Of a DNA stretch of 64,000 nt, positions 3,428 through 26,724 are shown one piece after another. Source of the stretch: Giardia intestinalis (Eukaryota). Both the position numbers and the translations under genes were made by a program. Under the pieces are notes generated by a model, which was not told where the DNA came from, searched no databases, and worked only from the letters and a program-made list of their open reading frames with translations. The number at the start of each line of letters is the position of its first letter. Positions within the stretch are counted from its first letter, which is position 1. The stretch lies in assembly GCA_000002435.2 (NCBI GenBank), contig CM018790.1; one strand, written 5' to 3'.

Positions 3428-5641
3428 CTAAATAAGCTCGTGCCACGGGGCTCCACTGCAGACATATGCCATGGCAAATATGTTATTATATCGTTGATTC
3501 TCAAACAGAGGCATGTACGATGCAGCCTCCTTAGTAGGAAATATGCGGGTGAACATCCCAGAGCGCTGCTCTTCATCAGAGATTTGCATACAGATTCTTC
3601 GCTCCATCTCTGTGAGATTTGCCATCGCGCCTTGAGGAAGACCGTATCGTACCCGACCCTGTTTATCCATACGCCGCAGCTGATCGGTTGTCATACTTTT
3701 GCCGTTAGCGCTCGGCCGCATTTCATTGAAAGGTAAGCGTGGTAGGTCGGTCTTAGACTGGCTAGAATCAGAAAGGCTATCTGATGTGCGACAAGATTTG
3801 TTGGATTTGCTCGATAGTGAACTCGGTGAGGCGTTTGCGTTGGTTTTGACATTAACAGGGGTGTCACCTTGTTTTTTCTGGGCAGAGATGCTACCACTTG
3901 CAGCTACGTCTGCATCTGGGCATGGATTGGCGTCTGCAAGCCTCATAGATTGAGTAGGGGGGAGGCTCCCTGCCGAGAGGTAGAGTGCACTATCCAACAT
4001 CGCTTTTCCATGCACTGAGGCTGACGTCTGCGGTCGTGGAAGAGGTACGTTGCTAGACCCTTGGCGGATTGCTTCTCCAGATGTCTGAGCGCGCGCAGTT
4101 AGTTGGGTATTCCGTTCTTTAATAGACTTTGCTCTCTTTTCATCCTCTGTCATGATCGTTGGGACCATAATGTCCAGCTCATTACGCTTTTCAACAGGAA
4201 TGCCAATTGTGTTCAAAGCTTCCGCTATCATAGGGTATTTAACATTAACATCTAGCTGCGTTGATGTAGCTGTGGCCGGAGAAGAGTTGACTTCTATCAA
4301 GATTGGCTTCCCGTTGCTTTGAAGCATGATATCGAATCCATAGATTCCAAACGAGATCCTCGGGTAGGTGCTAGCCGTTCGTGCTTTGTGACCAAGGATA
4401 TAGAAATTTGGCTCACAAGCAATCAGTGTTTTGATTACTAGATCACATATGCTGGAGTATAGCCTTTGCTGAACAACCCCGTTGCCTGGGACACCAGCGT
4501 TTTTCACAATTGAATCTGGGTCTTTGCTGTCAAAACAATCCCTATTCATGTCCAGATGTGCAAACAGGTCTGATGCTTTCCATTTGGAGGGGAACGCAGT
4601 ATTACCTTGACAACTGTCATCCTCATCTTCAGGGTTAGAGTACTCATAGCTACTCATGCTACTATCGCTGTCGTCGCTACCAGTAGAATTAGAGGCAGAA
4701 CCCGATCCCTTGTTTAAAGAGCTTCCCGTACTGGTCATGGTCATGATTCGTTCAACCTTCTCTTGAAGCTTCCCCTTTTTAGCCTTCACAGGGCAATGCT
4801 TTCCTGAATCTGGATTCACAAATGTGTCTGAAGATGCATTAATGCTGAAATTGGTTAAGTGCATCTTTTTGAGCTTTTTATTGCGTATAGTCGGCTTGTG
4901 GTATTTACGCGTGGCGAACCTGCCCAGGCCCTCATTATATATGTACATTATAAGAGGATCTACAGAGGTTATTAGCACGTAAATCCGCAAATCAAATTTG
5001 TACCCGTTGACAAGAAGGGGGTTGGAGATGTACTTTTGCAAGACAGCGGGCTTATCATCAAGGATGGCGTCACCATTTGATAGCAATCTGATGCCCTCGC
5101 CCCTTGCTCCTAGGGCCGGTTTGTAGATATAAAAGGCGTCTGGATTCATTGCCATATCACGCACAGCAATGGAAGCAGATTGCGGGAGTATGTACGTCTT
5201 TGGGATAAAGTCGTAGAGCTCCTTACCAGATCTATTCTGGGCAGCTACGATGCAGGAGGCTAGCTTGTCCTTCCTGCCGATAGCATTAGATCCCGGCACC
5301 TGATTGCAGATCTGCCCCGCCACCAGGGTTGAATAGAAACTCACGTTTTTGGGGGACCCCCAGCATATATTGAATTTTCGGCAATTTTTTGGTCCTGGAA
5401 CAAATCCAGCATCCGCAAAGGTGCGCCGGATTGCCTTTGTAGTTGGTCCGGCATACCGCACAATTGGCTTAGCTTTAGGAAGGATGGTTGTGTCAGCAAC
5501 ATTTCCCAGAAACCAGTAATAATACCCAAGTGAAGGGAACAGCGACTTGGCTATTCTTACGTCTCCGATATGCCCTGCTTTAAGTTGTGAGCGCCTCTTG
5601 ATCTCTGCATCGGTGAGAGCATCTTTTTTAATTGGAAGCAT
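3428..5641 (-). CDS. Tubulin tyrosine ligase-like (TTLL) family protein
   Basis: 737-aa ORF. The TTL ATP-grasp core is present: QKYISNPLLVNGYKFDLRIYVLITSVDPLIMYIYNEGLGRFAT...NFYILGHKARTASTYPRISFGIYGFDIMLQSNGKPILIEVNSSP. ATG start near 5640. Convergent with the bystin gene, with about 29 bp between stops. Confidence 0.85.
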   Translation of the reverse strand: MLPIKKDALTDAEIKRRSQLKAGHIGDVRIAKSLFPSLGYYYWFLGNVADTTILPKAKPIVRYAGPTTKAIRRTFADAGFVPGPKNCRKFNICWGSPKNVSFYSTLVAGQICNQVPGSNAIGRKDKLASCIVAAQNRSGKELYDFIPKTYILPQSASIAVRDMAMNPDAFYIYKPALGARGEGIRLLSNGDAILDDKPAVLQKYISNPLLVNGYKFDLRIYVLITSVDPLIMYIYNEGLGRFATRKYHKPTIRNKKLKKMHLTNFSINASSDTFVNPDSGKHCPVKAKKGKLQEKVERIMTMTSTGSSLNKGSGSASNSTGSDDSDSSMSSYEYSNPEDEDDSCQGNTAFPSKWKASDLFAHLDMNRDCFDSKDPDSIVKNAGVPGNGVVQQRLYSSICDLVIKTLIACEPNFYILGHKARTASTYPRISFGIYGFDIMLQSNGKPILIEVNSSPATATSTQLDVNVKYPMIAEALNTIGIPVEKRNELDIMVPTIMTEDEKRAKSIKERNTQLTARAQTSGEAIRQGSSNVPLPRPQTSASVHGKAMLDSALYLSAGSLPPTQSMRLADANPCPDADVAASGSISAQKKQGDTPVNVKTNANASPSSLSSKSNKSCRTSDSLSDSSQSKTDLPRLPFNEMRPSANGKSMTTDQLRRMDKQGRVRYGLPQGAMANLTEMERRICMQISDEEQRSGMFTRIFPTKEAASYMPLFENQRYNNIFAMAYVCSGAPWHELI

Positions 5642-6330
5642 TATACACAGTCACAATTGCAGCAAGTTCCTATAGCACAACCGTAAGCGATAGACACAAT
5701 GATAGTCCGCTTCTTTCAATTTTTAAGGTGTCAGTTTTTATGTTTTTGCTGAGATGATGATTCGCTCCACCCACTGGTTGCTTCTAGCGTTGTGCTGCTG
5801 GGCTTTTTGCCCACCATGAAGGAAGGCCAAAAAGTGAGGCACCACTAGTGGACTAGGGGTCTGAGAGAAGACCTGAATTCCAGGCGGACCAACGCACATA
5901 CTCAGACTGAGCACATCCCTGCGGAACAACTGAGGGACGCAGAAGACTCCTGGTATACAAATGAAGGGAGATCCCTATTATATCATCAGCGACCAGCCAT
6001 AGTCTCCAGGCGGCCGGGAAGTGAGCGCGGCTTACCCATGAGACCTCTGAGCGCACCTGCAGGCGGGCCCAGTGATACAGTGACAGCAATGTACAGGAGT
6101 ACACCCCAATCAATCACTCCACAAGAGAGGTGCGATCTGAGTCTGGTCCTCACTGGTCATGTTCCTATGGAAGTCAGGGGGAACTGCGCTATCAACTGGC
6201 CTCCGGTGGGTGTGCTCCTATCTTATCCTTCTCCAGTCCAACTGATCAAGGAGAGCAAGAGCGGCTGTCTCTCACTGCTCGCGGCAACACACAAGTCTGA
6301 CGGAAGAGCAGTGGCATACTAACCCGGCTA

Positions 6331-6714
6331 ATGTTGGTAGGATTTCTCCTAGTTTTTGTGGTAACACAGGCCAACTGCGCACCAGAGCTGACCAGAGCGG
6401 GCTGCAAGACGTGTAGCCCCGACGGCCAGACCTGCACGGCATGCACCAACGATTCTCACAACGTACAGGTCGACGGGAAGAGCTGCGATGCCAACTGCCC
6501 GGAGCACTCCGCGGCGAACGGCCAGAAGGTGTGCGAGTGCGAGGGAGGATACGGCCCGGTCACCGGAGAGAACAGGTGCGAGCCTTCTAATACCAACAAG
6601 AGTAGCGGTCTTTCTACCGGCGCTATTGCAGGCATCGCTGTTGCAGCCGTCATTGTCGTCGGAGGCCTCGTTGGCTTCCTCTGCTGGTGGTTCCTCTGCC
6701 GGGGCAAAGCGTAG
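6331..6714 (+). CDS. Mini variant-specific surface protein (VSP)-like gene: signal peptide, CXXC motifs, TM helix and CRGKA tail
   Basis: ATG at 6331. The N-terminus [16 protein letters not shown] is signal-peptide-like. CXXC motifs are present ([14 protein letters not shown]). The C-terminal [33 protein letters not shown] is near-identical to the tail of VSP 52618..54816. AGTAAAT lies 17 nt after the stop. Confidence 0.7.
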
Positions 6715-6728
6715 ATGTAGACTTAGGT

Positions 6729-6735
6729 AGTAAAT
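6729..6735 (+). promoter_or_regulatory. Giardia-type polyadenylation signal AGTRAAY (AGTAAAT) downstream of the mini-VSP stop
   Basis: The sequence gcgtagatgtagacttaggtAGTAAATgctg follows the CRGKA stop codon. The same arrangement is seen after both full-length VSPs. Confidence 0.55.
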
Positions 6736-7070
6736 GCTGTATGGACATGTGGGCGGTGCTCTGGCGTGATTGAGCAATGGGTGCCCGATCTCTGAGCTCT
6801 CGTGGTCCTCATTCATAGACTCCCGTGGCCTCTGCATGAGAGCATCCGTTTGCGGAATGCTGAAGAGGCGCGCCTGTGTGTCGCCATGGCAGGAGCGTTG
6901 TGTCTCCCATGCATGCCCTTGCAGTCGTGCGTCATCCCCGGGACCCCAGCTCGGATCCTCAGACTCCACGGCGCAGGGAGAGGAGTTGGCCCGCTCCTGC
7001 CATCGCCTCGTCTGCGCGGCGGTCGTGGCTGTGCGCACCCTTGTATGCACTGGGCAGTGGAAGGACAGCC

Positions 7071-8417
7071 CTACGCATCGCTGACCCGTGCCTTGTGCTT
7101 CCTCTGCCTCCCCTCCTGGTCCTTCTGCGACCTCCCCCCGACCCCAGCGCGACGGCCGGAACTCACCTGCGTGCTCGCCATGCAGAGGAACAGGCGCGCT
7201 CCATCCACGGCCGTGAAGACGCATCGCAAGGCCCCTTCTGTCTCGTACAGGGCGCAGAACATGTGTGTCGAAGGGGCCAGCTCGCATGTGCCGATAGAGC
7301 GGGGGCCGTCTGTGCCGCTCTCCACGGGCATCCTGTGGAAGTGGAGAAGGCTTCCCCTGCAGAAGGCCAGACAGAGGCTTCCCGGGGCAGCCGAGGATGG
7401 GGACAGAGAGCAGATGCGGAACGACTCAGACTCCGGGGGCAGGCTCTGGGCCCCGAAGTCATCGAGTTCTATCGTGGAGAACGAGAGATGCGACAGCAGG
7501 CCGGAGACGACCAGGAGGACCGGCAGATCGGAGCGCTCGCCGGTCTCGGAAATGGCTGACACGGCGACGACAGCCGAGGTGCCACACATGCAGACGGCCC
7601 CGACCTGCGCCTCTGCAAGCCCGGGACCCTCTTTGCAGCGGTACAAGAGATGCTCCTCGGGGCTCGAGACAACAACCCGGGACATGTAGAACTCCGTGCC
7701 GGTCTGAGTGAACCACTCGAATCCCCGTAGCGCTGGGTCCAGAGTTGCGGGCTCCTGGAAGCAGACGCAGCACAGAACGACTTCTGCATCAGTCGTGGAG
7801 GCCAGGACATAGAGGAGGGAGGAGGCCGGATCGTAGCGCAGAGAGGGGCAGGCAGTGTCAGCGACGGAGACGGGGAGGACAGTTGCCTGGGGACACCCGC
7901 CGCGCAGGCAGAGCAGTAGAAGGCCAGTGCCTTGCGGGTCCTGTGCTGGGAGCCCAAACACAGCGACGAGGACACTTGCGGCCCCGCACCTCTCAGCAGA
8001 GAGGTTTCGGATAGGCCAGGGGATGTCCCGTGCGGGGTAGAGCAGGACTAGGCGATGCGTTCGATGGGAGCCTGCTACGAGCTCGTAGATGGCCGACACA
8101 GAGGCGAGGAAGACCCGCTCATCCAGGGCGCAGACCGCGGTCAGGGGCTCTCCCGGGGCGGCGCGTCCGAGGCTGCAGACACTTCTGCTGCCGCTGATGC
8201 CCTTGGAGGTGATTGCATGGACGATGGGGGCCCAGCTCTGCGTGGTTAGCGCCACGACAGCGTCCCCGCCGCAGACTCGCGCAACCACCGCAGCAATGAC
8301 CGGGGCGTCAAGCTCGGCCCTCCACTCGCACAGGGGGGATCCGGGGGCGTGGGCAGCGATATCCCCAGAAGAGACACCCGCGCGCTCCAGGGCGCTCATT
8401 TTAAGACTGAGGTCCAT
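7071..8417 (-). CDS. Hypothetical protein encoded in a GC-rich island (448 aa)
   Basis: This is the longest ORF in the ~64% GC block 6715..8900, with ATG at 8417. At this GC a chance 448-codon ORF is very unlikely, at roughly 1e-5. The composition is A/V/S/L/G-rich and protein-like, whereas the overlapping plus-strand ORFs (6802..7689, 8089..8859) are R/P/S/C-rich and look like shadows. No recognisable domain. Strand choice is uncertain. Confidence 0.4.
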   Translation of the reverse strand: MDLSLKMSALERAGVSSGDIAAHAPGSPLCEWRAELDAPVIAAVVARVCGGDAVVALTTQSWAPIVHAITSKGISGSRSVCSLGRAAPGEPLTAVCALDERVFLASVSAIYELVAGSHRTHRLVLLYPARDIPWPIRNLSAERCGAASVLVAVFGLPAQDPQGTGLLLLCLRGGCPQATVLPVSVADTACPSLRYDPASSLLYVLASTTDAEVVLCCVCFQEPATLDPALRGFEWFTQTGTEFYMSRVVVSSPEEHLLYRCKEGPGLAEAQVGAVCMCGTSAVVAVSAISETGERSDLPVLLVVSGLLSHLSFSTIELDDFGAQSLPPESESFRICSLSPSSAAPGSLCLAFCRGSLLHFHRMPVESGTDGPRSIGTCELAPSTHMFCALYETEGALRCVFTAVDGARLFLCMASTQVSSGRRAGVGGRSQKDQEGRQRKHKARVSDA

Positions 8418-8982
8418 AGCTCTGCAACGCCATCTGCACGTCAGCCCCGGGCAAACAGTCGGACTGTTCTCTTGGCCATATGCTCGCTGCTGCGGGGACC
8501 CCGAGCTGTTCTCACCTCGAGTCTTCGCAACAGCCCGGGCAGATGGGTGCAGAGGCAGTCACAGCGCGGCTAAGCCGTTGCCTGCAGGGCATTCTTCCAG
8601 CCAGGGGCAAGGTTTTGCAGCGAGACATGGCCTGCTTCAGACCATCAGGGAGCTCGCGCACGCAGACTACCGACCAGGTGGCTGCCGCCGTGCAAGGCGT
8701 GCGCTAAGATTGGAGTGGAGCGTTTACTGCCTTCCAAGCGGATGTGTTTCCTCAGCATGGTGGTCCGTGTGGTGGGAACGGATGCACACCATGGTTTGCG
8801 AAGGGGGCTCTAGGCTTCAGAATCCCAGTGATCACTTTGTTGCACCTTGCTACACATAGCAGGGGCGACGGAAGGAATCCAAGGGGTGCAGTCTTTGTAT
8901 GATGCGCCATCTGGATGCGCTGCAAGAGGCCCAGGAATTGCAGGCGTACTGCCACACGCGTTCTATGTGACCTGCAGTAAAA

Positions 8983-9618
8983 ATGCCGTCTATGGATGAC
9001 TTAGATCAATTCCTTCAGGAGTGCGACTGCGCCTTACTCCTCATGTCTGAGAAGAACACGAGCGAAGAGAGCGCAGGAAACTCAACTGAGTCTTCACAAA
9101 CAGATGATGAAGGCAGCGTGGACGAGGACGGCGTCACCACGCTTATGGAGGCAGCCAAAAGAAACGACGTGAAGGCGGTGAAGCGCTATATCCCTTATCA
9201 GGCAAGGATGGTGGCGAAGCTTGTCAAGGCAGGGAGAGTAGAGATATACGATGGGACGGCCCTGATGGTCGCTGCGGTGCTTGGACACACCAGAGTGGTG
9301 AAGCTGCTGATGAGGCACGAGCGTTGCATGAGGAGCAGTAATGAATGGACGGCCCTCATGTGGGCGGCACTTTTTGGCCGCACCGAGGTCGTGAAACTAC
9401 TCCTGGATGTTGAGGGAGGCATGCAAATAAACGGAGGTGTTACCGCCCTCACAGCTGCAGCAGGCTTTGGCCGTCTGGACTGTGTCAAGTTACTGCTGGA
9501 GAGAGAGAAGGACGTAGGCGGCGAGTCTGCTCTTTGTATGGCTAGTACACGAGGTCACCCCGAGGTGGCGTCTTTTCTTGAAAATAAGGGCATTAGGCTA
9601 GTGGATCCTTACCTGTGA
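8983..9618 (+). CDS. Ankyrin-repeat protein (Giardia Protein 21.1-like)
   Basis: ATG in the A-rich context gtaaaaATG. At least four ankyrin repeats are present (TALMEAAKRNDVKAVKRYI..., TALMVAAVLGHTRVVKLLM..., TALMWAALFGRTEVVKLLL..., TALTAAAGFGRLDCVKLLL). AGTAAAC lies about 22 nt after the stop (9640..9646). Confidence 0.8.
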   Translation: MPSMDDLDQFLQECDCALLLMSEKNTSEESAGNSTESSQTDDEGSVDEDGVTTLMEAAKRNDVKAVKRYIPYQARMVAKLVKAGRVEIYDGTALMVAAVLGHTRVVKLLMRHERCMRSSNEWTALMWAALFGRTEVVKLLLDVEGGMQINGGVTALTAAAGFGRLDCVKLLLEREKDVGGESALCMASTRGHPEVASFLENKGIRLVDPYL

Positions 9619-9963
9619 ATACTATCCAGAAAGCCCGTGAGTAAACGCGCTTAACTGTTGGTTGCATCCGACGGGGACTAGAGTCTCCCTCCAGCTGTGC
9701 AGGGGGACGGCTAGCCAATAGGGTGAAGTGATGGCTGTCAGTGGGGCACACAGCCACCCGTTTCCGCAGAGGCCAGGGGGCTGGCCTTCTCACCCTCGGT
9801 CAGCACTGGGACACCGGTGGGTGAAACGGTCGCACAGGTGGCCTTCTCGCTGCTGATGCAGAAGCCCTCCGCAAGCATTGGACCACTACAGATCTGTAGA
9901 CACAAACCCCTGTGGAAACGGATCGTTTCCAAAACTGTAGATTACCAAAATAATAAAACCAGG

Positions 9964-10841
9964 ATGCACGCTGCTTCGTCTGGATCTGCAACAATAGCTT
10001 TCAGTGCCCCGCAGTTCACCCCCAAGGAGCTCCACGAGGGGCTGGATGACGTGCTGGCCAAAGACCCCACAAGCACAATCTACTCTCTCGAAGCTATCTG
10101 GGCCTCGCTGTAAAGGTCATTCCACTAGGTTACCTGGACAAGAACAGTGCAGACGCCATCAGGACAAGGTTGACCACCCTCCCCGACCTCTCCCATCCGG
10201 GGGTCCTCAGGTACCACCAGGTGATTGAAGACGAGGGCCTCATCTACGTCGTCACGGACTGCCAAGACAAGACCCTCGAGCGCCCCCTCGCCGAGCACAA
10301 ACGAAGGAAGATCCCCGTCCCTATCACTATGATCCTCTCTGTCATGAAACAGATCGCCGCCGCCCTCGCCTACCTCCACAGCGTCAATGGGGCAAACACG
10401 AGAGGCCTCGTCCACTGCGACCTCAGGCCTGCCAGCATTCTTATCAACGCAGACGGAGAGCGCTTCATCATCGCCGACTTCGGCCTCTGTAAGGACGCCC
10501 TGTGGAGTGGGAACATTCTCATAGGAATAATGGCATACGTTGCCCCCGAGGTGCTCCTCCACAACGAGCCCAGCCCCGCCTCCGACGTGTGGAGCCTCGG
10601 GGTCATCCTCTACGAGCTTACTACTCTGAGGAGACTGGACTTCCTGAAAGGCAAGGAGCCGGCAGAGGTCTTCGTCGATGGGTGGAGGCCGGACCTGAGC
10701 GGTGTCACTGATGGCTTCATGCAGAATGTTCTGGAGAGGATCTTTGTACTAGAGCCAGAGAGGAGACCGACAGCCAGGGAGCTGCACGAGACGCTCACCA
10801 CATTCGACATCCCAGTTGGTGAGCTGGGGGTCAGTGCGTGA
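9964..10841 (+). CDS. NEK-like protein kinase with degenerate motifs and an apparent -1 frameshift near 10050..10112 (possible pseudogene or sequence error)
   Basis: ATG at 9964 in the context aaaataataaaaccaggATG opens 49 codons (MHAASSG...IYSLEAIWASL*) in frame 1. The kinase body is in frame 0 from 10050 and includes the track ORF 10170..10841, which starts at TTG. Motifs seen: LAVKVI (beta3 Lys), HCDLRPASIL (catalytic loop with K>R and N>S), ADFGLC (DFG), VAPEV, DVWSLGVILYEL. Confidence 0.55.
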
Positions 10842-11165
10842 TGCTGAGGTACAAGTGCGGATCCTTGAAGATTGCTTTGAATGGCGCTAACGCCAGGATC
10901 GCGCTTCTGGAAGAGGATGTTAAGATTAAATCCACTAGATCGACGCACTTGAAGACCAAAGTAAGGAGCATCTGGCCATGATTAAGGCACTGGAGAATAG
11001 GCTTGCACAGCTCAACATCAGAATAGCTACGACTGAGTCTCTGACCAGCCTCTTTTTGCTGCCCAGGCTGATGCGTGCCGCGCATACGAATAGCACGGAA
11101 ACCGTCTGGATGCTGCTTGAAGAAAGACTCGGCATCGACTAGTGCGACGAGCAGGGGCACGTTGA

Positions 11166-12118
11166 TCCCGTCGAGTTGCTTGTTGGGGAGGAGAGGGGCC
11201 TCCAGGACAAGAATGGCTGGACTACCTGATGATCGCCACAGAGGAGGGCCACACAGAAGCTGCCTCCCTTCTGGTCCCATATGAGAAGGACCTAATCGAT
11301 GGCGAAGGCAAGACGGCCTTGGTGATTGCGGCAGAAGCAGAACATGGAACTGTGGTGGAGGCCATCGACCCAACCGATGAGAACGGCGTCACGGCGCTCA
11401 TGCGGGCTGTTAATAGAAACGACGTGGAGGCTGTAAAAGCACTCTTACCCATCCAGAGGGGGAGGAAAACATACAAAGAGGTCATAGCAAGCAGATGGTA
11501 CATGCGCAAAGGAATAGCTCTGATGATGGCTGCGGCAAGTGGACACGCAGAACTGGTAGAACTGCTAGCAGAGCACGAAAACGGAGAGAAAGTAGGCGGT
11601 TGGACCGCTCCCGTATTCGCGGCACGGTGCAATCGTTCCAATGACCCCCTGGTGGACTATCCCAGGCGCGTTGAGCTTTTGATGGAGTATGAGAGCAATA
11701 TCTCAGAGTAGACGGAGCTCATGTATGCAGCAGCACGAGGGCACGAAGGGAGTGTAGAGCTGCTCAAGCAAGAAACTTGTATGAAGAATAACGAGCATCA
11801 GACTGCCCTCACGTGGACGGTGTGCAATGATCATCCAGAGTGCGTCAGGATCCTACTGAAGGACGAAGGCGGCATGCAAGCGACCAAGGGGGGACCGCCC
11901 TTATGAACGCAGCGTATAGCAACACCGTGGAGTGTGCAAGACTTCTTAAGGAAAACGAGAAAGATCTGAAGACAACCTGCAGCTGCCATGGTTACTCGCC
12001 CGGTACCACTGCCCTCAGTATCGCTAAGAAGAAGGATCACAAAGAGATAGTAGACATCCTCCCAAACGAGATCTACTCTGCTTCATCAAGGTCGGCTTGC
12101 CAGCTCCTGTCCGAGTAA
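11166..12118 (+). pseudogene. Ankyrin-repeat (21.1-like) gene disrupted by an in-frame TAG and a +1 frameshift; further degenerate ankyrin-like frames extend upstream to ~10950
   Basis: ORF pieces 11229..11711 (TALMRAVNRNDVEAVKALL...; IALMMAAASGHAELVELL) and 11721..11906 are in the same frame and are separated only by TAG at 11709..11711 (...NISE*TELMYAAARGHEGSVELL). A +1 shift occurs at the G6 run 11888..11893, continuing into ORF 11840..12118 (GGTALMNAAYSNTVECARLL...). An additional stop- and shift-interrupted ankyrin-like frame lies at 11075..11165. Confidence 0.55.
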
Positions 12119-12960
12119 ACCCGTCCAGAGTCCGAAGCTCGGATGCCGCCCACTCTGGAGAAGAGCCTTGTGCATCCCGCCTGGGAGCCGTTGGGTGCTC
12201 CACTATGCGCTCCGGGGCGTCCCTTCCTCTGGCTGGCTTGGGTCAACCATCGTCTGGCATCTAGTGAGCACCTGCTGTCCCGGGCCTTGCGTCGGTCACA
12301 GCGATCTAGTCTCGAGAGCAATTGACTCTGGCCATGTACTCCGGAGTAGCTTTGTGGTGCTGATGCTCTACGACGGAGATTGCACGCCACGACCCCGGGT
12401 GCCTACCCCGTTCCTCGGGTGCCTCCTTGTCTCCTCGTGGATTGTGCCGTCGGTCCCGAGCATGATCAGAGGGTGCGCTCCCCGTACGCCTCTATCTTTG
12501 AGTCATAGTACGCGTTCGTGGATGCCGGCGGAGTACTCCCATGCGTTGTGTCGGGGAAGAGGCCCATCTCTCTGCTCACGGACCGCAGAAGTGCTCCGTC
12601 ACCCAGCACGAGACCGTGTCGACGCTCACCCTGTGCAGTGCGTCTGGCTCAGTGACGTGTGGGCTGGTCCATCCTCACACCGCACACTTGGGGGTGATGC
12701 TTCGGTCTGTCGAGGCGTCGTCCAAAGCATCACGAGCGATCAAGACCGGTTCACCGAGGCCGTCTCTCTACAACCAGCACCCGTCTATTCGAGGGTGTCA
12801 GGTACTGCCAGCTGCTGTGGCAGACACCCGGCAGGTGGTCCAAGTCACCACTCTCCGGTGCGGGCAGGATCAGTCCGCCTCTGTCAGCCAAGCACTCCAG
12901 GGGCCCCATCTCTTGTCGAGGAATTCATATGGGTCACGTGTGGGTCCATCTTGACAAGCG
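12082..12960 (+). repeat. Dispersed GC-rich repeat R, copy 1 (paralog of 23530..24290); apparently non-coding
   Basis: Direct alignment with copy 2 starts at cttcatc[a/g]aggtcggcttgccagctcctgtccgagtaaa. It is about 90-95% identical over ~700 bp, with a 213-bp 100%-identical core at 12316..12528. Only low-complexity P/S/R-rich ORFs are present (12168..12974). The right boundary is approximate. Confidence 0.7.
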
Positions 12961-13333
12961 GGGCGAGTGATTAGTGCCATCACTAGCTTCGGTCCTCCGT
13001 TGCCCCCTCTATCGCCTCGGGGGAGGAGGCATAAATCTTCCTCGTCAGAAGTAGACGGCATCCGACCTTCGGATTTCGGATTCTGGGTCTCAGCTGATGA
13101 ACAAGCGAGAGACTGCCAGCCTAGTGTGGCAGTGGATTGCACGAGGGGATTTACTCAGGGCTCATTTGAGACTATAGACTAAACAAAAGGCAGTACAGTT
13201 TCTTGAAGAAAACTATGGTTATAGGCCAAAAGGCAGACAGGCCAAGGCTACATTATATTAACATCTTGGGTCAGTACTGGGGGTTCTAGGATCCTAGAGG
13301 ATTAGAGGTCAGAATAAATACTTTAAAAAACAC

Positions 13334-16300
13334 ATGTCCAATACTAGTGCTGTTCTTTCTCAAATGTCCCCTCCTACTGGAGTATCTACGGCAGCACAAT
13401 TTTCCCTTGAGGGTCAGGAGTATCTGGCGGTGGTGCGTGTATCTGTGCTGCACATTTATAAGGTAAAAGATGATAGAATACAGTTCATTATCTCACAAAG
13501 CTTCGCAGAACGAATTTTGCAAGTGTTTCCCCGTATCTTCATTGACGAGCTTTCAGGAATGGAGAAACTCCAGCTTTTACTCTGCTTTGATTCCCACAAA
13601 GCTGTCCTGTACGCCCTAACTGGCCTTCGTCTGTCTCAGCTTATGATCTACGACTTTACTGTTACTGCAGAAGAAGCATTAGCCCATGAGCAGGCGTCTT
13701 ATGCGCTGTATGATAACTCTATTCTAGTCTGTATCTGTGGCACAATTCGTACTTATATTGGACTTGCCCAGCTTGATACAGGCTCCATCATCCTAATACC
13801 TTTCGTTGGTGAGAAGATTATTGATGTGCAGTGCCTTTCTCGCTCTTCTACTAACGGCCCTCAGCTGGGTATTCTAACTAGCTTTCCTGTCCCTGCACAA
13901 AGGTGGGCGCGTAACGCTCGTGGAGCGCATCTTCACGTCTATACCATAGAGTATAACGGTGCCGGATTGTCTTCTGAAAAGTCATCTCAGAGAGATGCGT
14001 TTACGCTGGCCCTGCAGCATAAGGTCTCCAACCTTCCCTCAGATAGCTATAGCCTTACGGCTCTTGAGGATCCGCTTAATCTATTTTTAGTCCATTCCAC
14101 ACGAGTTTTCGTATTAGTTAATCCAACTGAAAGGACTTTTCAACCGCTACACTTTCGTTTCTCCTTCCTTCCAGAGGAACAGACGTGCAGTAGTGCATAT
14201 ATAAAAAGCGCCATATCACAGTGTGCATCATTGTCAGGGTCTCATCTTTCTCCGTTTGCTGAGAAGTTTACTGCTTCTTCAGATTTGAAGCTTGTGAGCA
14301 ACAAGCTATTATCTCTACATAACGGCATACTTACAACAGAGAAAACACAATTTAATTCTGTTCACCGGGCTACTCTACCCATTGCACCCACACTCATGCC
14401 TGCTCACCCTATCAAAGGAGGTCTGGAGTACCCTTATTACGGATTCAGCATAGACCGACCAGATGAGCCTGTTTGTTTATCACAAATTAGCAACGTTTTG
14501 GGTGGGTTTCCTGCGTTAGATCTACACTTATATATGGAAGCATGCGGTTCTACGCATATCGATAATCTACTCCGATTTGAAAATCGAACTAGAAGTAGCA
14601 TTACTCCAGGAGAGTACATCAACATGTCAGCGTTCGGCAAGTATCCGTCGAATTTGGAGTACCTTGGCCCTCGGTCAGATGTGTTTAATTACCTACAGAT
14701 TCCCCCGTTAAATGGTACGCGTGTGTGTTATTTGAAAAGCTCTACTACCATGTTGAAAGGTTGGCACAACATCTTAGTGATGGATAGCAGGGGTTTATCA
14801 TTTATTATGCGATTTCATAGCGATAACGGGGCGATTACTAAGCAGAGCTTGGAGTTGTATCCTGTTTGTCTTTGTGATCGCAACGCAGCGATAACGACAG
14901 GTTCTCCTGCGATGCTGTTTCCGCCTTCCGTGATCTTGGCTCTTTCAGCAGCCTCTACAAAGAATACTCCACTGGGATACGAACTGGAACGCAGATATCG
15001 CGCAGTAGCGGAACTCCCAGCTGACGTTAGGCCTAGAGAAGATAAGGTACAATGCGACGTCCAACATCCATATCATGATCTTTTTTCTGTACGGGTATTC
15101 GTTGGCTCTCTTGTTGAGGACTCTCTCTTGTGTATGATAACGATGTCAACTGCAACACCAAAGCAAGGATACTACTATGATTACAGGCCGTGCCCTCTAC
15201 CAGGTGAGACGAACCATGCAAATATAACTAAGCTTGCACAAGCCTTGTATGCCTCGTCCTCCATAACTGAGAGCACCGCGCCGCATTTATCTTCTCTTTC
15301 ATCTCCGTTAGTTACTTCCGAGTCCAGTGCGGAGACAAGAAAAATCCAGATCTTTGGTCAGAGCTTCAATGTAGAAAACTATCATAGAATTAGGATCTTT
15401 GCTAATGCAAAACTGCTCAAGCCTTTTTCGGGAAGCATACTCCGTCTTATCGAGCGTCAAACTACTCATCTTCCAACATATGACACTGTGATGCACGGGC
15501 TTGTCTTTCCATACGCAATTCTCCCCTCCATGTCTTCTGTTAAGGATGCTTCCGCCAAGCCCGTCGGTTTGGGTGAGCAGAAGGATGCAAATGCTCGACC
15601 TCGCCTTCATCTGCTTCACGAGGCCGGTGCTATTTCCATGGTTAGCTCTTACGCGACATCTACGACTTCTTCGCAGTTTAAGTATGCTCAGAAGATGAAC
15701 AGACTAGACGACAGAGCAACATCTCTCTCAGATAGCTACGTCTGCGCTTTTTACCATATGAATCCAGATGCAAACAACCATCGCTCATTGAGATCTATGT
15801 TTTCTGGGGCTACGTCTTTCAATATTCTCGTCACATCGCGGGATGGAACAAACGTAATGTCCATTACCAAAGACACCGATCTTTTCAGCTCTACGTCGAC
15901 GAAGAAAGAACTGTCAATACACCCAGTGAGCACGCCAGCAGTACTTCATCAACCAACCATTCTAGCATTTACCCTCGCATGCGGCGTTTCTGTTCAAGTG
16001 TGCCCTCTAGAAATGGTGCTCTTTGCATACGATGGCCTGGAGAAAGTCTCGGTATCAATTGGCGAGCTAGCGTCGTCTTGTAAACCGCAGATGCTTCAGG
16101 ATTGCTCCGAACATTTGGCGATCTTACATGCCGAAAGCGACTATGTGAGATTTCTGTTTTTGACTACTTCTACTGCAATCTTCTGTGTACCCTTGCCTAC
16201 TTCTAAGGCAGATCTTGTGGGATATCGTACGCCTGTTAGCGAAACTGCGTTGTGCATTTATACCATGACCTCAATAGAGAACTTTTGCTCATCGGCCTTC

Positions 16301-22538: not shown

Positions 22539-23546
22539 TCAAATTACTTTACTGCTCATTGACACCCCACTCTGCTTTCCTACTTCGTTGCTATCTGAGT
22601 CGCATTCGTCTGTACGGTCTCCAATATCCGGGTTCTGAACCATGAGCTCCTTATCTTCGCTGTTATCGTTCTTACTCTTCTTTCTCCTGTCCCTAAACGT
22701 GTATATAATTAATGCAACCGTCAAGACAAATAGCTGTACAGTCGAAGAAGTCATTGTTAAGTAGGTCATCCAATTAGCCTTAGATATGATAGCAAAAACG
22801 AACATACATAAGACGACAATGAACTGGATACTTGAAAGTAAGACAGACATGCTTCCTGGTGATTTGACTTTACATGTGTGGTAAATTTGGGGACTGAACT
22901 GTGCCAGGTTAAAGAAAAGGGATGTGATGGACAGTGCCAAAGTAAATCCACGGACCCATGGGGTACACATACCATAGAAGATCACAATTACAGTAGCTGC
23001 TGCGATGATGGATAGCATAACACCTAAAAATAGGAAGAAAGCAAGTACATGACACTTAGCTCTTTGAACATCTCCTTGATCACTGGTAGGCTCGGCTTCA
23101 GATGAGGTTGCATGATTGGTCTTGACCTTTGACACATATAATAAACGGATAGTGAGTGCATACCACCATATGAACCCCAATAGGAAGGCAGAGCTCTGCA
23201 GAAAGGGGATCATGTTTGAATAGCATAAGCCTGGGTTTTGAGGACAGGCGAAAATTTGAGGAAGGGTGGTGATATAGAATACACTAGTGGAAAATAAGAG
23301 AGAGTATGAAGCAACGTGTAAAAAGATGAACGAAATACTGTAAACGGATCTTGTTCGGTACATCTTCACCAGCTGAGGAATATATGAGATAACGATTAAA
23401 GCTAGGAGAATGCTGTTGAATATCGTAACAGGAAGGCTTATATTAGCTAGATAAGGTGTGTAGTCGTATGGATCTATAAACGTGCCGTCTTCAATATAGC
23501 AAGGGTTACGTATCATTTTAATAAAGCTCAATTTGCTCTTCTTCAT
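22539..23546 (-). CDS. PQ-loop repeat multipass membrane protein (cystinosin/LCT-family-like)
   Basis: 335 aa with about 7 predicted TM helices and two PQ motifs in the expected positions (VISYIPQLVKMYRTRSV and AQFSPQIYHTCKVKS). The ATG (MKKSK) at 23546 overlaps the left end of repeat R copy 2. Confidence 0.6.
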   Translation of the reverse strand: MKKSKLSFIKMIRNPCYIEDGTFIDPYDYTPYLANISLPVTIFNSILLALIVISYIPQLVKMYRTRSVYSISFIFLHVASYSLLFSTSVFYITTLPQIFACPQNPGLCYSNMIPFLQSSAFLLGFIWWYALTIRLLYVSKVKTNHATSSEAEPTSDQGDVQRAKCHVLAFFLFLGVMLSIIAAATVIVIFYGMCTPWVRGFTLALSITSLFFNLAQFSPQIYHTCKVKSPGSMSVLLSSIQFIVVLCMFVFAIISKANWMTYLTMTSSTVQLFVLTVALIIYTFRDRRKKSKNDNSEDKELMVQNPDIGDRTDECDSDSNEVGKQSGVSMSSKVI

Positions 23547-24290
23547 CGAGGTCGGCTTGCCAGCTCCTGTCCGAGTAAATCCGTCCAGGATCCGAAGCTC
23601 GGATGCCGTCCACTCTGGAGAAGAGCCTTGTGCCTCCTCGCCCGGGAGCCGTTGGGTGCCCCACTATGCGCTCCGGGACGTCCCTCCTCTCTGGCCCGTC
23701 GGGGTCAACCATCGTCTGGCATCTAGTGAGCACCCGTTGTCCCGGACCTGCCGTCGGTCACAGCAGTCTGGCCTCAGAGCAATTGACTCTGGCCATGTAC
23801 TCCGGAGTAGCTTTGTGGTGCTGATGCTCTACGACGGAGATTGCACGCCACGACCCCGGGTGCCTACCCCGTTCCTCGGGTGCCTCCTTGTCTCCTCGTG
23901 GATTGTGCCGTCGGTCCCGAGCATGATCAGAGGGTGCGCTCCCCGTACGCCTCTATCTTTGAGTCATAGTACGCGTTCGTGGATGCCGGGGGACAGCTCC
24001 TATGCGCTGGTATTGGGGGAGAAGTATGGTCCTCTGCTCATGGATCGCAGAGGTGCTCTTGCAGGCGGTCCGTCACCCAGCACGAGATCATGTCGGCGCA
24101 TCATTCTATGCAGTGCGTCTGGCTCAGCGACGTGTGGGCTGGTCCATCCTCACACCGCACACTTGGGGGTGATGCTTCGGTCTGTCGAGGCGTCGGTCCA
24201 GGGTCATCGACTGCTGGGACCCTCCACCATCAGGGTGGTAGACCAAGGAGAGGCGCCACTGATAGACGACGCAGATGGGTAAGTAAGCTA
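23530..24290 (+). repeat. Dispersed GC-rich repeat R, copy 2 (paralog of 12082..12960)
   Basis: Same orientation as copy 1. The 100%-identical core is at 23777..23989. It lies between the PQ-loop gene start and the 3' end of VSP 24541..26724. ORF 23533..24282 is low-complexity and is judged spurious. Confidence 0.7.
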
Positions 24291-24521
24291 AATCCTGGGC
24301 TGAGCGACGCACGTACACAGTCTGAGCACACGCCCATGAAACGGTAGAGAAATGTACCGAGCCCTGGATATATCACTGGAGAGGACTCTCTCATCATGTT
24401 ATCCATGATCAACAGTTGTCTCCGGACGGCCAGGACTTGAACGAGAATTTACTCGTGAGACTTCTGGACGCACTGCAGGTGGACCTATCAACATATCTAC
24501 GCAAGCTACGCACAGTAACGC

Positions 24522-24528
24522 GTTTACT
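24522..24528 (-). promoter_or_regulatory. AGTRAAY polyadenylation signal (AGTAAAC) of VSP 24541..26724
   Basis: Minus-strand sequence after the CRGKA stop: tagatgtacttagatAGTAAACgcg. Confidence 0.55.
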
Positions 24529-24540
24529 ATCTAAGTACAT

Positions 24541-26724
24541 CTACGCCTTCCCCCTGCAGATGAACCACCAGCAGAGGAACCCTACGAGACCAGCCACAAC
24601 GACGATGACAGCCACGGAGATCCCCGCGATAGCGCCCGCGCTGAGACCGCTCTTGTTGGTGTTCTGTATGAGGTAGCAGAGGACGGAGCCAGTACTAGAC
24701 GATGGAGGAGCGCAGTTTAGGCAACCCTTAATACCAGTGACCCCATTGCTATCACTTTCGCAGGATGTGCACGCACCTTCTCCTGATGCGGTCTTGTAGT
24801 ATCCTGTAGCACACGCCTTACATGTTGTAGCTGCTCCATTACATGTTTCGCAGCTGGAATCACACTTTGTGCATGCACTTGCACTCTTTACATATCCGTC
24901 CAGACACGTAGTACAGTCGGTACTGCTGGTACATTCCTTACACCCTTCAGAACAAACTGTAAGGGTACCTGAATCCAACTTGTAACCATCTGCAGCTTTT
25001 TGACACGTACCACCATTTGGTGCACTAATGCAAACCGTCTTACCGGGATACTTGACTGTTTCATAGCACCCTCCGTTCATCTTAAAGTAGTTATCGGCAC
25101 ACGTTCCACAAACACCATTCTGAATAGGCGAGTCGTTGCACGTAGGTGTGGCGCGGCTAGCCTTTGGTGCACAGACGCCATTTTGAGGATACTCTGTCGT
25201 TGTGGCGCACTCAGAGCAGTAGCTAGCACCATCGATAGTGAGCCCACACGTTTTGCAGGCGCCGCTGCCTTGGCCCGTTGTGCAGCCTTCTCCGCACGTG
25301 CCCTTAGTACCGTCGTCCCCGTACCTAAGTGCTTTTCCAGTGGGACACTCGGTGCAGTCGCTGGCAGTGCCTGCGCTGCATGTCTTGCAGCTTTCGTGGC
25401 ACGGAGAGCATGCGTCGCCGTTTTTATAGAATCCGTCGCTGCATGCTTGGCACTGCCCTTGCCCATCGCAAGTCTTGCAGTTAGCCGCAGTGCACTCTTT
25501 ACAGATTTTCTTTGCTCCTTCGGTAGCTCCATAGTAGTTTCCAATCTTAGCGCAGCTGTCTATGCACTGGCTTGTCGGCGTGAGATATGTGCTACTATCA
25601 CAGTCTGTGCAGACCTCGTTCTCCTTTCCTTCGTTGCTGCACGCCTTGCATCCGGGGGTCTTGCAGTTGCTTACCGCCTCGCACGTAGTTTTGTCGGCAC
25701 TAGGCTTGTATCCATTCGTGCAAGCGATGCACGTAATAGTGGGCGCTATCCTTCCTTGGTCTGTCGGAGTACACGCCGCGCACTTATCGACGCCCCCATT
25801 CGCAGCGTCACCGCATAAAACACACCTGTTTCCGCTCTGGGAATTTTCTACCGGAAAAGAGTCGGGTGAGCATGCGCTTTGCTCTACACATGTCGTTGTG
25901 CCATCAGCGGCCGTTTTGAGATAGTTATTGCCACCGCACTTCGTGCAAGCAGGCTTGGCTTGATCGGGACTTGGCGGCGTGCACTTTTCGCAACTCGCCA
26001 CCCCAGTGGTTACATCTCCGCATGCAAAGCATCTCTTGCCATTGTCAGAGTCCTCCTTCGAAAACTCAGTGTCAGGCGTGCAGCCCTCCCCACAAGTACC
26101 AGTCGTTGCAAGGTACTTATCCTGGCCGCACCTGGTGCACTTGGCGTCTCCGCCGGCAGCGTCTGTCAGCGCCGCCCCGTCGCATCTCTCGCAGTGCTGC
26201 ACCCCCCTGTACGTTTTGCCGCTGTCGGTGAACCCGGTCGTGTCCGAGCACGATACCACAGAGTCCTTGGTATTCGCCCTCAGCGGGTTGAGGAAGTACC
26301 CCGGGGCCGCCTCGGTGCACTTTCCCTCAGAGGCTTGCGTGCACATGCTCTGTCCTGGTGCAGTGTCCTTTGAATAACAGCCGTCCTTGTACATGAAGGA
26401 GGCGCCTCCGCACTGCGTGCACTTCCCCTGGCCCTTTGCCGGGCAGAGCGTTTTGCTTTGCCCCTCAGCGTTGACGTCTGCACACTGGCCGTTCACGGGG
26501 GCGTAGTTTGCTCCGTTGCACTCGGAGCAGTATTGTTCTTGGCCGATGGTGACGCCACACGTTTTACAGCTCCCATCGCTGCCTGATCCGTCTGCCTGAC
26601 ACGCAGCCCGTGCCAGCTGAAGGATGACGATCGCGAGCAAAAATCTGCCGAACATTGGGCCGCCGACCTGCTGGGTGGCGCCGGCCTTCCCCGGGAGAGG
26701 CGGGGTCGTCTGATGTGCCGACAT
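24541..26724 (-). CDS. Variant-specific surface protein (VSP), full length
   Basis: 727 aa, rich in CXXC motifs. It ends with a TM helix and ...FICRGKA. AGTAAAC lies 13 nt after the stop. The signal peptide MFGRFLLAIVILQLARA begins at the second Met (alternative start 26655). A 23-codon in-frame extension (MSAHQTTPPLPGKAGATQQVGGP) is conserved with the other VSP. Confidence 0.9.
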   Translation of the reverse strand: MSAHQTTPPLPGKAGATQQVGGPMFGRFLLAIVILQLARAACQADGSGSDGSCKTCGVTIGQEQYCSECNGANYAPVNGQCADVNAEGQSKTLCPAKGQGKCTQCGGASFMYKDGCYSKDTAPGQSMCTQASEGKCTEAAPGYFLNPLRANTKDSVVSCSDTTGFTDSGKTYRGVQHCERCDGAALTDAAGGDAKCTRCGQDKYLATTGTCGEGCTPDTEFSKEDSDNGKRCFACGDVTTGVASCEKCTPPSPDQAKPACTKCGGNNYLKTAADGTTTCVEQSACSPDSFPVENSQSGNRCVLCGDAANGGVDKCAACTPTDQGRIAPTITCIACTNGYKPSADKTTCEAVSNCKTPGCKACSNEGKENEVCTDCDSSTYLTPTSQCIDSCAKIGNYYGATEGAKKICKECTAANCKTCDGQGQCQACSDGFYKNGDACSPCHESCKTCSAGTASDCTECPTGKALRYGDDGTKGTCGEGCTTGQGSGACKTCGLTIDGASYCSECATTTEYPQNGVCAPKASRATPTCNDSPIQNGVCGTCADNYFKMNGGCYETVKYPGKTVCISAPNGGTCQKAADGYKLDSGTLTVCSEGCKECTSSTDCTTCLDGYVKSASACTKCDSSCETCNGAATTCKACATGYYKTASGEGACTSCESDSNGVTGIKGCLNCAPPSSSTGSVLCYLIQNTNKSGLSAGAIAGISVAVIVVVAGLVGFLCWWFICRGKA

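Follow-up and report, generated by a model that had tools for sequence, protein, structure and literature searches.

R, a dispersed, GC-rich, non-coding repeat family of Giardia duodenalis with inverted-repeat ends and a patchwork of gene conversion

Introduction

To our knowledge, Giardia duodenalis has been reported to carry only three families of retrotransposons without long terminal repeats (non-LTR retrotransposons) and no transposase-related sequences. The dead non-LTR retrotransposon GilD (= Genie 2) was reportedly described by Arkhipova and Morrison in 2001 as dead copies that occupy internal positions and contain deletions and frameshifts, and Burke et al. are said to have found in 2002 (Mol Biol Evol 19:619) inverted repeats as long as 172 bp in all copies of the degenerate Genie 2 family. 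Here we describe a dispersed repeat family, to which we give the name R, that is represented by two copies in a stretch of 64,000 nucleotides (hereafter the window) of contig CM018790.1 in the Giardia intestinalis assembly GCA_000002435.2. This DNA comes from WB clone C6 of Giardia lamblia (duodenalis).

Other systems known from this organism offer further points of comparison. The Gil elements have unusually long 3′ untranslated regions (UTRs) (PMC5537684). In the repeats Girep-1 to -5, units of 222-228 nt that resemble the coding repeats of variant-specific surface protein (VSP) genes are arrayed head-to-tail in tandem (PMC2817412); these repeats have been proposed as sources of double-stranded RNA (dsRNA) or small interfering RNA (PMC1950533, PMC2817412). 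For assemblage A, an enrichment of gene conversion in GC-rich DNA and at VSPs has been reported (PMC12669663). R resembles the Gireps (PMC1950533, PMC2817412) in being a Giardia-specific, non-coding, GC-rich and VSP-linked repeat. We nevertheless rejected the assignment of R to the Gireps, because R is a dispersed single unit without tandem structure (Tandem Repeats Finder reported only a 15-nt microrepeat at 11900-13400) and blastn shows no similarity between R and the VSP genes of the window. Neither the WB reference-genome paper nor the P15 genome paper describes such a repeat, and a full-text literature search with R sequence strings retrieved no Giardia paper. The literature on Giardia scaffold/matrix attachment regions and on the integration of Rep from single-stranded DNA viruses was considered as well and found to be irrelevant to R.

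An initial annotation of the window had drawn attention to the two copies and to a perfectly conserved core that they share, and had proposed for them selective constraint, as in a structured non-coding RNA (ncRNA), recent gene conversion, or a mobile-element remnant or low-copy dispersed repeat. The analysis presented below showed that the observation is real and highly non-random, and that its interpretation as gene conversion within a dispersed repeat, most likely a mobile-element remnant, is right. R is a Giardia-specific, ~1.1-kb non-coding family that has the same inverted-repeat ends at unrelated sites and bears a patchwork of conversion.

Results

Comparison of the two copies by blastn aligned 12076-12724 with 23536-24200 in the same orientation, with 89.5% identity over 666 columns and 18 gaps; the identity, about 89%, is thus below the 90-95% that had been estimated at first. 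Searches with blastn and nhmmer found only these two R copies in the window, at a spacing of 11.5 kb. The core that had been described as 213 bp of complete identity (12316-12528 and 23777-23989) is exact and is preceded by one further matching base, which gives a perfect run of 214 nt: 12315..12528 of copy 1 and 23776..23989 of copy 2, both on the + strand. The palindrome CTCCGGAG, at 12339, and the duplicated motif GGGTGCCT, at 12397 and 12417, lie within the core, as annotated. When 76 differences were permuted over 676 columns, the longest run free of differences averaged 40, its 99.9th percentile being 87, and none of 200,000 permutations (0/200,000) reached 214. We read the perfect run as a probable gene-conversion tract for the reasons that follow.

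Both R loci have orthologues in a second assemblage-A isolate, where they lie on a single contig (NODE_365 of ERZ19219916). Loci outside the window are designated here by numbers beginning with L; independent assemblies agree with each other, L007 being the same as L008, and L013 nearly the same as L014. The single-copy flanks of both R loci are 96-100% identical between WB and the second isolate. Inside R, the identity between the isolates is 60-84% per 100 nt at copy 2 and 34-92% per 50 nt at copy 1, where 94-100% identity is regained from ~13000 onward. Within the core, the two WB copies match at 213/213 positions, but the identity is only 72-73% whichever WB copy is set against whichever copy of the second isolate; the values for orthologues are 72.9% for copy 1 and 72.0% for copy 2 (L007). 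The two copies of the second isolate share a perfect run of their own, which is 252 nt long and corresponds to 12226-12507. Paralogues are therefore identical within a genome, and orthologues are 27% apart in genomes that otherwise differ by 0-4%, a pattern that points to concerted evolution by gene conversion. The explanation of the 214-nt tract by recent gene conversion, which was one of the original proposals, is thus strongly supported by the within-isolate perfect runs in WB and in the other isolate, set against orthologues that have diverged between nearly identical flanks. As judged from these alignments, conversion took place independently in both isolate lineages, and on the same pair of copies.

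Sliding analysis along copy 1 showed that its nearest neighbours change every ~60 nt, so that the family is a mosaic. Positions 12120-12239 are 97-98% identical to L004, a locus of isolate DH, 12240-12539 are closest to copy 2, and 12600-12659 are 97% identical to L001. Another DH locus, L005 (AHGT01000023.1, 8102-10900), is flanked on its left as copy 1 is and on its right as copy 2 is, and adjoins a TFIIB gene. The first ~45 nt of the perfect tract (12316-12360) are an indel that is missing in half of the R copies, and the family's most invariant stretch, 12692-12717, is not part of the tract; the tract is, therefore, different from the block that is conserved family-wide. Conversion at R resembles that described in PMC12669663 in that it involves non-reciprocal tracts in GC-rich, VSP-associated assemblage A DNA and leaves paralogues closer than orthologues. 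It differs in its substrate, a non-coding repeat, and in its scale, since the R tracts are ~50-250 bp whereas the median for the AI/AII events is 3.3 kb.

The extent of the element was determined by aligning left ends with the reverse-complemented right ends of several copies. Copy 1 occupies 12066..13186 (+ strand; ~1.12 kb, 59.6% GC), between the end of a NEK-kinase/ankyrin pseudogene and a CPSF_A-domain gene; its right coordinate is approximate, the outermost positions (13150-13186) being degenerate, and the nhmmer family profile covers 12062-13087. Copy 2, at 23526..24220 (+ strand; ~0.69 kb, 61% GC), was matched by nhmmer at 23523-24220 to profile positions 4-673. It has kept the left terminus, and its right side breaks off at the equivalent of 12724. 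The copies at L002, L003, L004, L006 and L013 align with copy 1 past 12724, to 13004-13143, and we therefore regard copy 1 as the full element and copy 2 as truncated. The truncation point of copy 2 and the sequence beyond it are found also in L005 and L007. The initial annotation was correct that the two copies have the same orientation, but it had extended copy 2 to 24290, whereas the similarity ends at 12724/24200, and had ended copy 1 at 12960, whereas it runs to ~13186. The truncated end of copy 2 is joined to a second dispersed module (24237-24540), which also occurs 3′ of VSP genes elsewhere with ~74% identity (L002 2403-2819 and 2-339; L005 10641-10900).

The full R element, ~1.1 kb in length and 60% GC, has imperfect terminal inverted repeats (TIRs) of ~155-200 bp. 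In L002, the inverted repeats at 7439-7592 and 8598-8450 are 154 nt long and ~77% complementary (score 101; shuffles gave a mean of 25 and a maximum of 42). The arms reach ~45 nt further out, to a common terminus that reads TTTACTCT...(~39 nt)...GAGTAAA, and the reverse complement of the TTTACTCT terminus was found at the right ends of L002 and L001 with scores of 32-33 (shuffle maxima, 30-31). The left TIR of copy 1 (12066..12177, + strand) consists of an outer part, TCTACTCT...GAGTAAAC (12066-12120), and an inner arm (12124-12177), and has lost ~65-70 nt after 12120 relative to L001, L002 and L003. Pairing of the inner arm with 13080-13025 gave a local alignment score of 46 (shuffles, mean 23, maximum 36). 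The right TIR of copy 1 spans 13018..13186 (+ strand); its segment 13018-13143 is 72% identical to the reverse complement of the L002 left end (7585-7457), and nhmmer detected a minus-strand self-match of 13110-13018 to profile positions 36-125. Both arms carry the motif AGTRAAY in symmetric positions, at 12114-12120 (+) and 13149-13155 (−), and the window shows no enrichment of this motif (34 observed, 30 expected). L003 and L004 share an alternative right end, which is non-coding and ~260 nt long.

The left boundary, TTTACTCT, adjoins three unrelated flanks: the NEK pseudogene (copy 1 and L005), a PQ-loop gene (copy 2 and L007) and a DEAD helicase gene (L006). Copy 1 had been thought to begin at the stop of the ankyrin pseudogene. 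Its start is instead ~50 nt upstream, at ~12066, and the stop codon, TAA at 12116-12118, is inside the TIR, where it falls within the first of the two AGTRAAY motifs; the final ~16 codons of the pseudogene are likewise contained in the left terminus of R. Between the TIRs, the part that is best conserved among assemblage A copies is a central block at 12360..12724 (+ strand), with a mean pairwise identity of 0.85 (range 0.80-0.91), as compared with 0.73 in the interior to its left and 0.77 in that to its right.

R was mapped in the DNA of eight independent loci, five of which (copy 1, copy 2, L002, L004 and L005) have a VSP gene or fragment within ~6 kb. Protein databases revealed further copies through open reading frames (ORFs) that had been called within R. 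The spurious ORF of copy 1 matches 34 protein clusters, all of them G. duodenalis "hypothetical proteins" or ENA contigs. A HMMER profile of the R ORFs, searched against 1.84 billion representative proteins, found 52 proteins, all with lengths of 52-315 aa; the named matches include GL50803_0027657, encoded on another WB chromosome, 13 ORFs of isolate DH, and GLP15_2786 of isolate P15. The idea of a mobile-element remnant or dispersed repeat thus agrees with a multi-copy family that has defined ends and TIRs at unrelated loci, but "low-copy" is no longer appropriate for a family with at least 13 ORF-bearing copies annotated in DH. A search of JGI metagenome contigs with a conserved 20-base R pattern gave four matches, all by chance, in unrelated GC-rich contigs.

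The family reaches beyond assemblage A. In P15 (assemblage E), diverged pieces of R, detected by nhmmer with E = 6e-20 and 1.4e-11, occupy the syntenic position upstream of the CPSF_A gene. These pieces (L016 13874-14620) are rearranged, the right part having the expected orientation and the left part being inverted relative to it, and nhmmer did not detect the central block of R in this P15 copy. A spurious ORF over the P15 pieces is annotated as GLP15_2886, which matched only itself when used as a query. At the VSP/PQ-loop site, R is present in two assemblage-A isolates and absent from P15; this is no clean empty site, since the neighbouring VSPs differ as well.

We examined whether R might specify a structured RNA. 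A search of the whole window against Rfam gave 0 matches at the gathering score and, at E<=10, a single chance match to a microRNA family (E = 8.6), located outside the core. In the consensus fold that RNAalifold predicted for the + strand from ten copies of the central block, 95.9% of cells were paired, as compared with 95.5% in column shuffles, and 7 compensated pairs were seen, as compared with 6.3 (217/500 shuffles were as high); on the minus strand, the covariation term was positive. Folding of the 213-nt core relative to dinucleotide shuffles gave z = +0.10 and −0.21. The covariation and structure analysis across copies that the initial annotation had suggested thus found pairing no better than in column shuffles, and the proposal of selective constraint, as in a structured ncRNA, received no support from Rfam, from covariation or from the folding of the core.

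The coding potential of R was evaluated in a similar manner. Each window copy has one + strand frame that is free of stops over ~235 codons, and the other five frames contain 5-10 stops. No Pfam family was found for the ORFs of both copies or, at E<=5, for the six frames of a full copy. Indels of 1-2 nt between copies cause the open frame to differ among segments and among copies. The synonymous fraction of the single-nucleotide differences is 0.25-0.36 in all six frames, none of which stands out, and the variation in R shows no codon periodicity. The earlier statement that neither copy encodes a plausible protein is in accord with the lack of a Pfam match and with the flat synonymous fraction.

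In the window, long ORFs that lack introns are compactly arrayed, with ~47-49% GC and a few GC-rich patches. Three of its proteins have exact WB matches: VSP XP_001708183, the PQ-loop protein GL50803_15292, and GL50803_113433. The NEK-kinase/ankyrin pseudogene to the left of copy 1 is frameshifted (8983-12118; Pkinase and Ank matches), and its last ORF fragment, at 11840..12118 (+ strand), matches Pfam Ank_2. The 3′ neighbour of copy 1 is the CPSF_A-domain gene, which starts at 13334 and encodes 2057 aa. Copy 2 adjoins the 5′ end of the PQ-loop gene (GL50803_15292; 22539-23546, minus strand) on one side and the 3′ end of a VSP gene on the other (24541-26724, minus strand; Pfam VSP, E = 3.6e-214).

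Copy 1 is part of an island-like segment, 5641-13334, which also holds a C-terminal VSP fragment (6331-6714), GL50803_113433 and the pieces of the NEK/ankyrin pseudogene. The ORF GL50803_113433 (7071-8417, minus strand; 448 aa, 65% GC), a putative gene, matches no Pfam family and has a paralogue with at least 90% identity, GL50803_112695, on another WB chromosome. In L017 (Logan SRR3177763), from a more distant Giardia lineage whose proteins are ~71% identical and which is probably assemblage B, the gap between the TTL and CPSF_A genes is only 268 nt (10377-10645), so that this lineage lacks the entire 7.7-kb island (5641-13334).

VSP turnover has a hotspot at the VSP/PQ-loop site. About 1.6 kb of the VSP gene (24715-26294) is missing from the second assemblage-A isolate (L007 10703-11446), leaving a VSP ORF of 247 aa, and in P15 the VSP at this site is oriented opposite to that of WB. 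The window contains two VSP paralogues, 24541-26724 and 52618-54816, which are 28 kb apart and show patchy identity of 80-100%; they share a perfect tract of 209 nt (26111-26319 = 54203-54411), a conversion-like pattern as in R. The old WB model of GL50803_15292 has 335 aa and an ATG inside the R terminus (23517-23546), the new model has 325 aa, and the ORFs called for the PQ-loop gene in other isolates, 408-420 aa in length, extend into R (L007 8747-9973). The 5′ end of the PQ-loop gene is probably mis-annotated in several genomes.

Discussion

We think it probable that R, as a dispersed, GC-rich, non-coding family specific to G. duodenalis, is a decayed non-autonomous element and that the perfect core is a recent conversion patch. 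R would be what is left, after decay, of a non-autonomous mobile or foldback-type element, which segmental duplication would also have spread within the variable VSP/NEK islands. Its copies now act as passive recombination substrates that swap patches of ~50-250 bp by ectopic, non-allelic gene conversion, and the 214-bp tract, which is no mark of purifying selection, is one such recent patch, exchanged in the WB lineage between copies 11.5 kb apart. GC-biased conversion may account for the elevated GC content of R, and no cellular function would be needed to explain any of the observations.

It is from the shared boundaries together with the inverted repeats that we infer past mobility. Like non-autonomous TIR elements, the class II elements that include the foldback type and those resembling miniature inverted-repeat transposable elements (MITEs), R is non-coding, multi-copy and intergenic, has long inverted repeats at both ends (as the scores for L002 and copy 1 attest), keeps the same outer boundary at unrelated flanks, and has given rise to truncated and internally deleted derivatives. 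In contrast to such elements, R is, at 1.1 kb, larger than typical MITEs, its inverted repeats are only ~77% complementary, it has no recognizable target-site duplication, and it has been spread in part by segmental duplication. Several observations weigh against our interpretation. No convincing target-site duplication was found at copy 1, L006 or L002, where degenerate termini could hide short ones. No transposase Pfam family is present among the neighbours at the eight loci, so that no autonomous partner was detected there, and we know of no transposase-bearing element in Giardia. The NEK pseudogene accompanies R both at copy 1 and at L005, with 87% identity between the two loci over 2558 columns, which denotes segmental duplication and not transposition. 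The conservation of the central block (0.85, as compared with 0.73-0.77 elsewhere) might reflect constraint instead of more frequent conversion. Finally, + strand open frames of 268 codons in copy 1 (12060-12974), 249 codons in copy 2 (23533-24282) and 360 codons in L003 (9698-10780) are unusually long. A bolder form of the hypothesis, which sees in R a relic family of class II (TIR) or foldback type whose copies are hotspots of ectopic recombination that shuffle the VSP/NEK islands, is in our opinion rather doubtful. If it were true and R were transcribed, the long inverted arms could give rise to hairpin dsRNA for the Dicer pathway.

Alternatively, R might represent one module of GilD (= Genie 2), the dead non-LTR retrotransposon, such as a long 3′ UTR with inverted repeats, in which case its copies would be internally deleted or truncated relics. 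GilD is reportedly likewise Giardia-specific and decayed, with tens of copies at internal sites. The arms of R, which range from 154 nt (L002) to ~200 nt, would be compatible with the limit of ~172 bp reported for Genie 2, and the copy number in the tens and the decay would fit as well. There are also differences, in that R has no reverse transcriptase (RT) or endonuclease remnant, both of its ends are constant, and it has no poly(A) tails at its ends. No RT or endonuclease Pfam family was found in the six frames of a full R copy or among the called genes within 10 kb of the eight independent loci, and the ORF lists of L002, L003 and L004 contain no RT remnants. Most copies have ordinary genes 30-300 nt away, which leaves no room for an RT ORF; instead of the variable 5′ truncation of a retrotransposon, R shows truncation at one internal point (the equivalent of 12724); and the profile of the R ORFs found no long protein among the 1.84 billion representatives. 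We consider an origin of R from GilD to be somewhat unlikely on this analysis. A further hypothesis is that R has been co-opted as a cis-acting module of the VSP/NEK islands, for example as a recombination hotspot that favours the shuffling of segments with VSPs, or as a bidirectional 3′-end or boundary element. The proximity of VSP genes or fragments at 5/8 independent loci, the chimeric junctions of L005, the homogenization of the same region in both isolates, and the poly(A)-signal-like AGTAAA motifs placed symmetrically in both inverted repeats would all fit such a role, but L001, L003 and L006 have no VSP nearby, AGTRAAY is not enriched in the window, and to be a substrate of recombination is not the same as to be selected for that role. 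We regard this possibility as unlikely.

The remaining explanations are less probable still. If R, or its 214-bp core, were a structured ncRNA gene held identical by purifying selection, one could understand the perfect core amid diverged flanks, the superior conservation of the central block, and the + strand consensus fold with 95.9% of its cells paired. Rfam, covariation and the folding z-scores are all at background, however, the orthologues of the sister isolate differ by 27% in the core between flanks that are 96-100% identical, 12316-12360 are missing from half of the copies, and the central block went undetected in P15; this explanation is, accordingly, very unlikely. We give just as little credence to the idea of a Giardia-specific protein gene on the + strand of which the R copies are pseudogenes. 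It would account for the three long open frames, which would encode 268, 249 and 360 aa and cover much of R, for the stop-free frame in each window copy where the other five are interrupted, and for the many times that gene callers and annotators have called R ORFs. It is contradicted by the shifting of the open frame between segments and copies through small indels, by the flat synonymous fraction and the lack of codon periodicity, by the absence of any Pfam family, by homologues that are short Giardia ORFs only, and by the start codons of the R ORFs, which are TTG or GTG. That the pair arose by a one-off segmental duplication within the 64-kb region, which the initial annotation had named as the outcome that would undermine its view, might seem plausible from the window itself, with its two copies in the same orientation 11.5 kb apart, but is hardly credible given the copies elsewhere: isolate DH and other assemblies have R at six or more additional, unrelated loci, another WB chromosome carries a third annotated copy, and assemblage E has a diverged copy at the syntenic site.

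R is a new or poorly described family of a familiar kind of sequence, and the results indicate no new mechanism or molecular function. Its recognition explains a series of "hypothetical proteins", among them GL50803_0027657 of WB, at least 13 entries of the DHA2_15xxxx series, and GLP15_2786 and GLP15_2886, and these R-derived entries are almost certainly not genes. If the inverted-repeat ends of R reflect past transposition, the mobile-element inventory of Giardia would need revision; should R turn out to belong to GilD/Genie 2, the finding would do no more than refine the picture of a known dead family. The homogenization of the same pair of copies, independently in two isolates, is a small-scale example of ongoing non-allelic gene conversion. 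The sexuality of Giardia is debated, and the R copies could serve as markers of the length and rate of conversion tracts in this organism.

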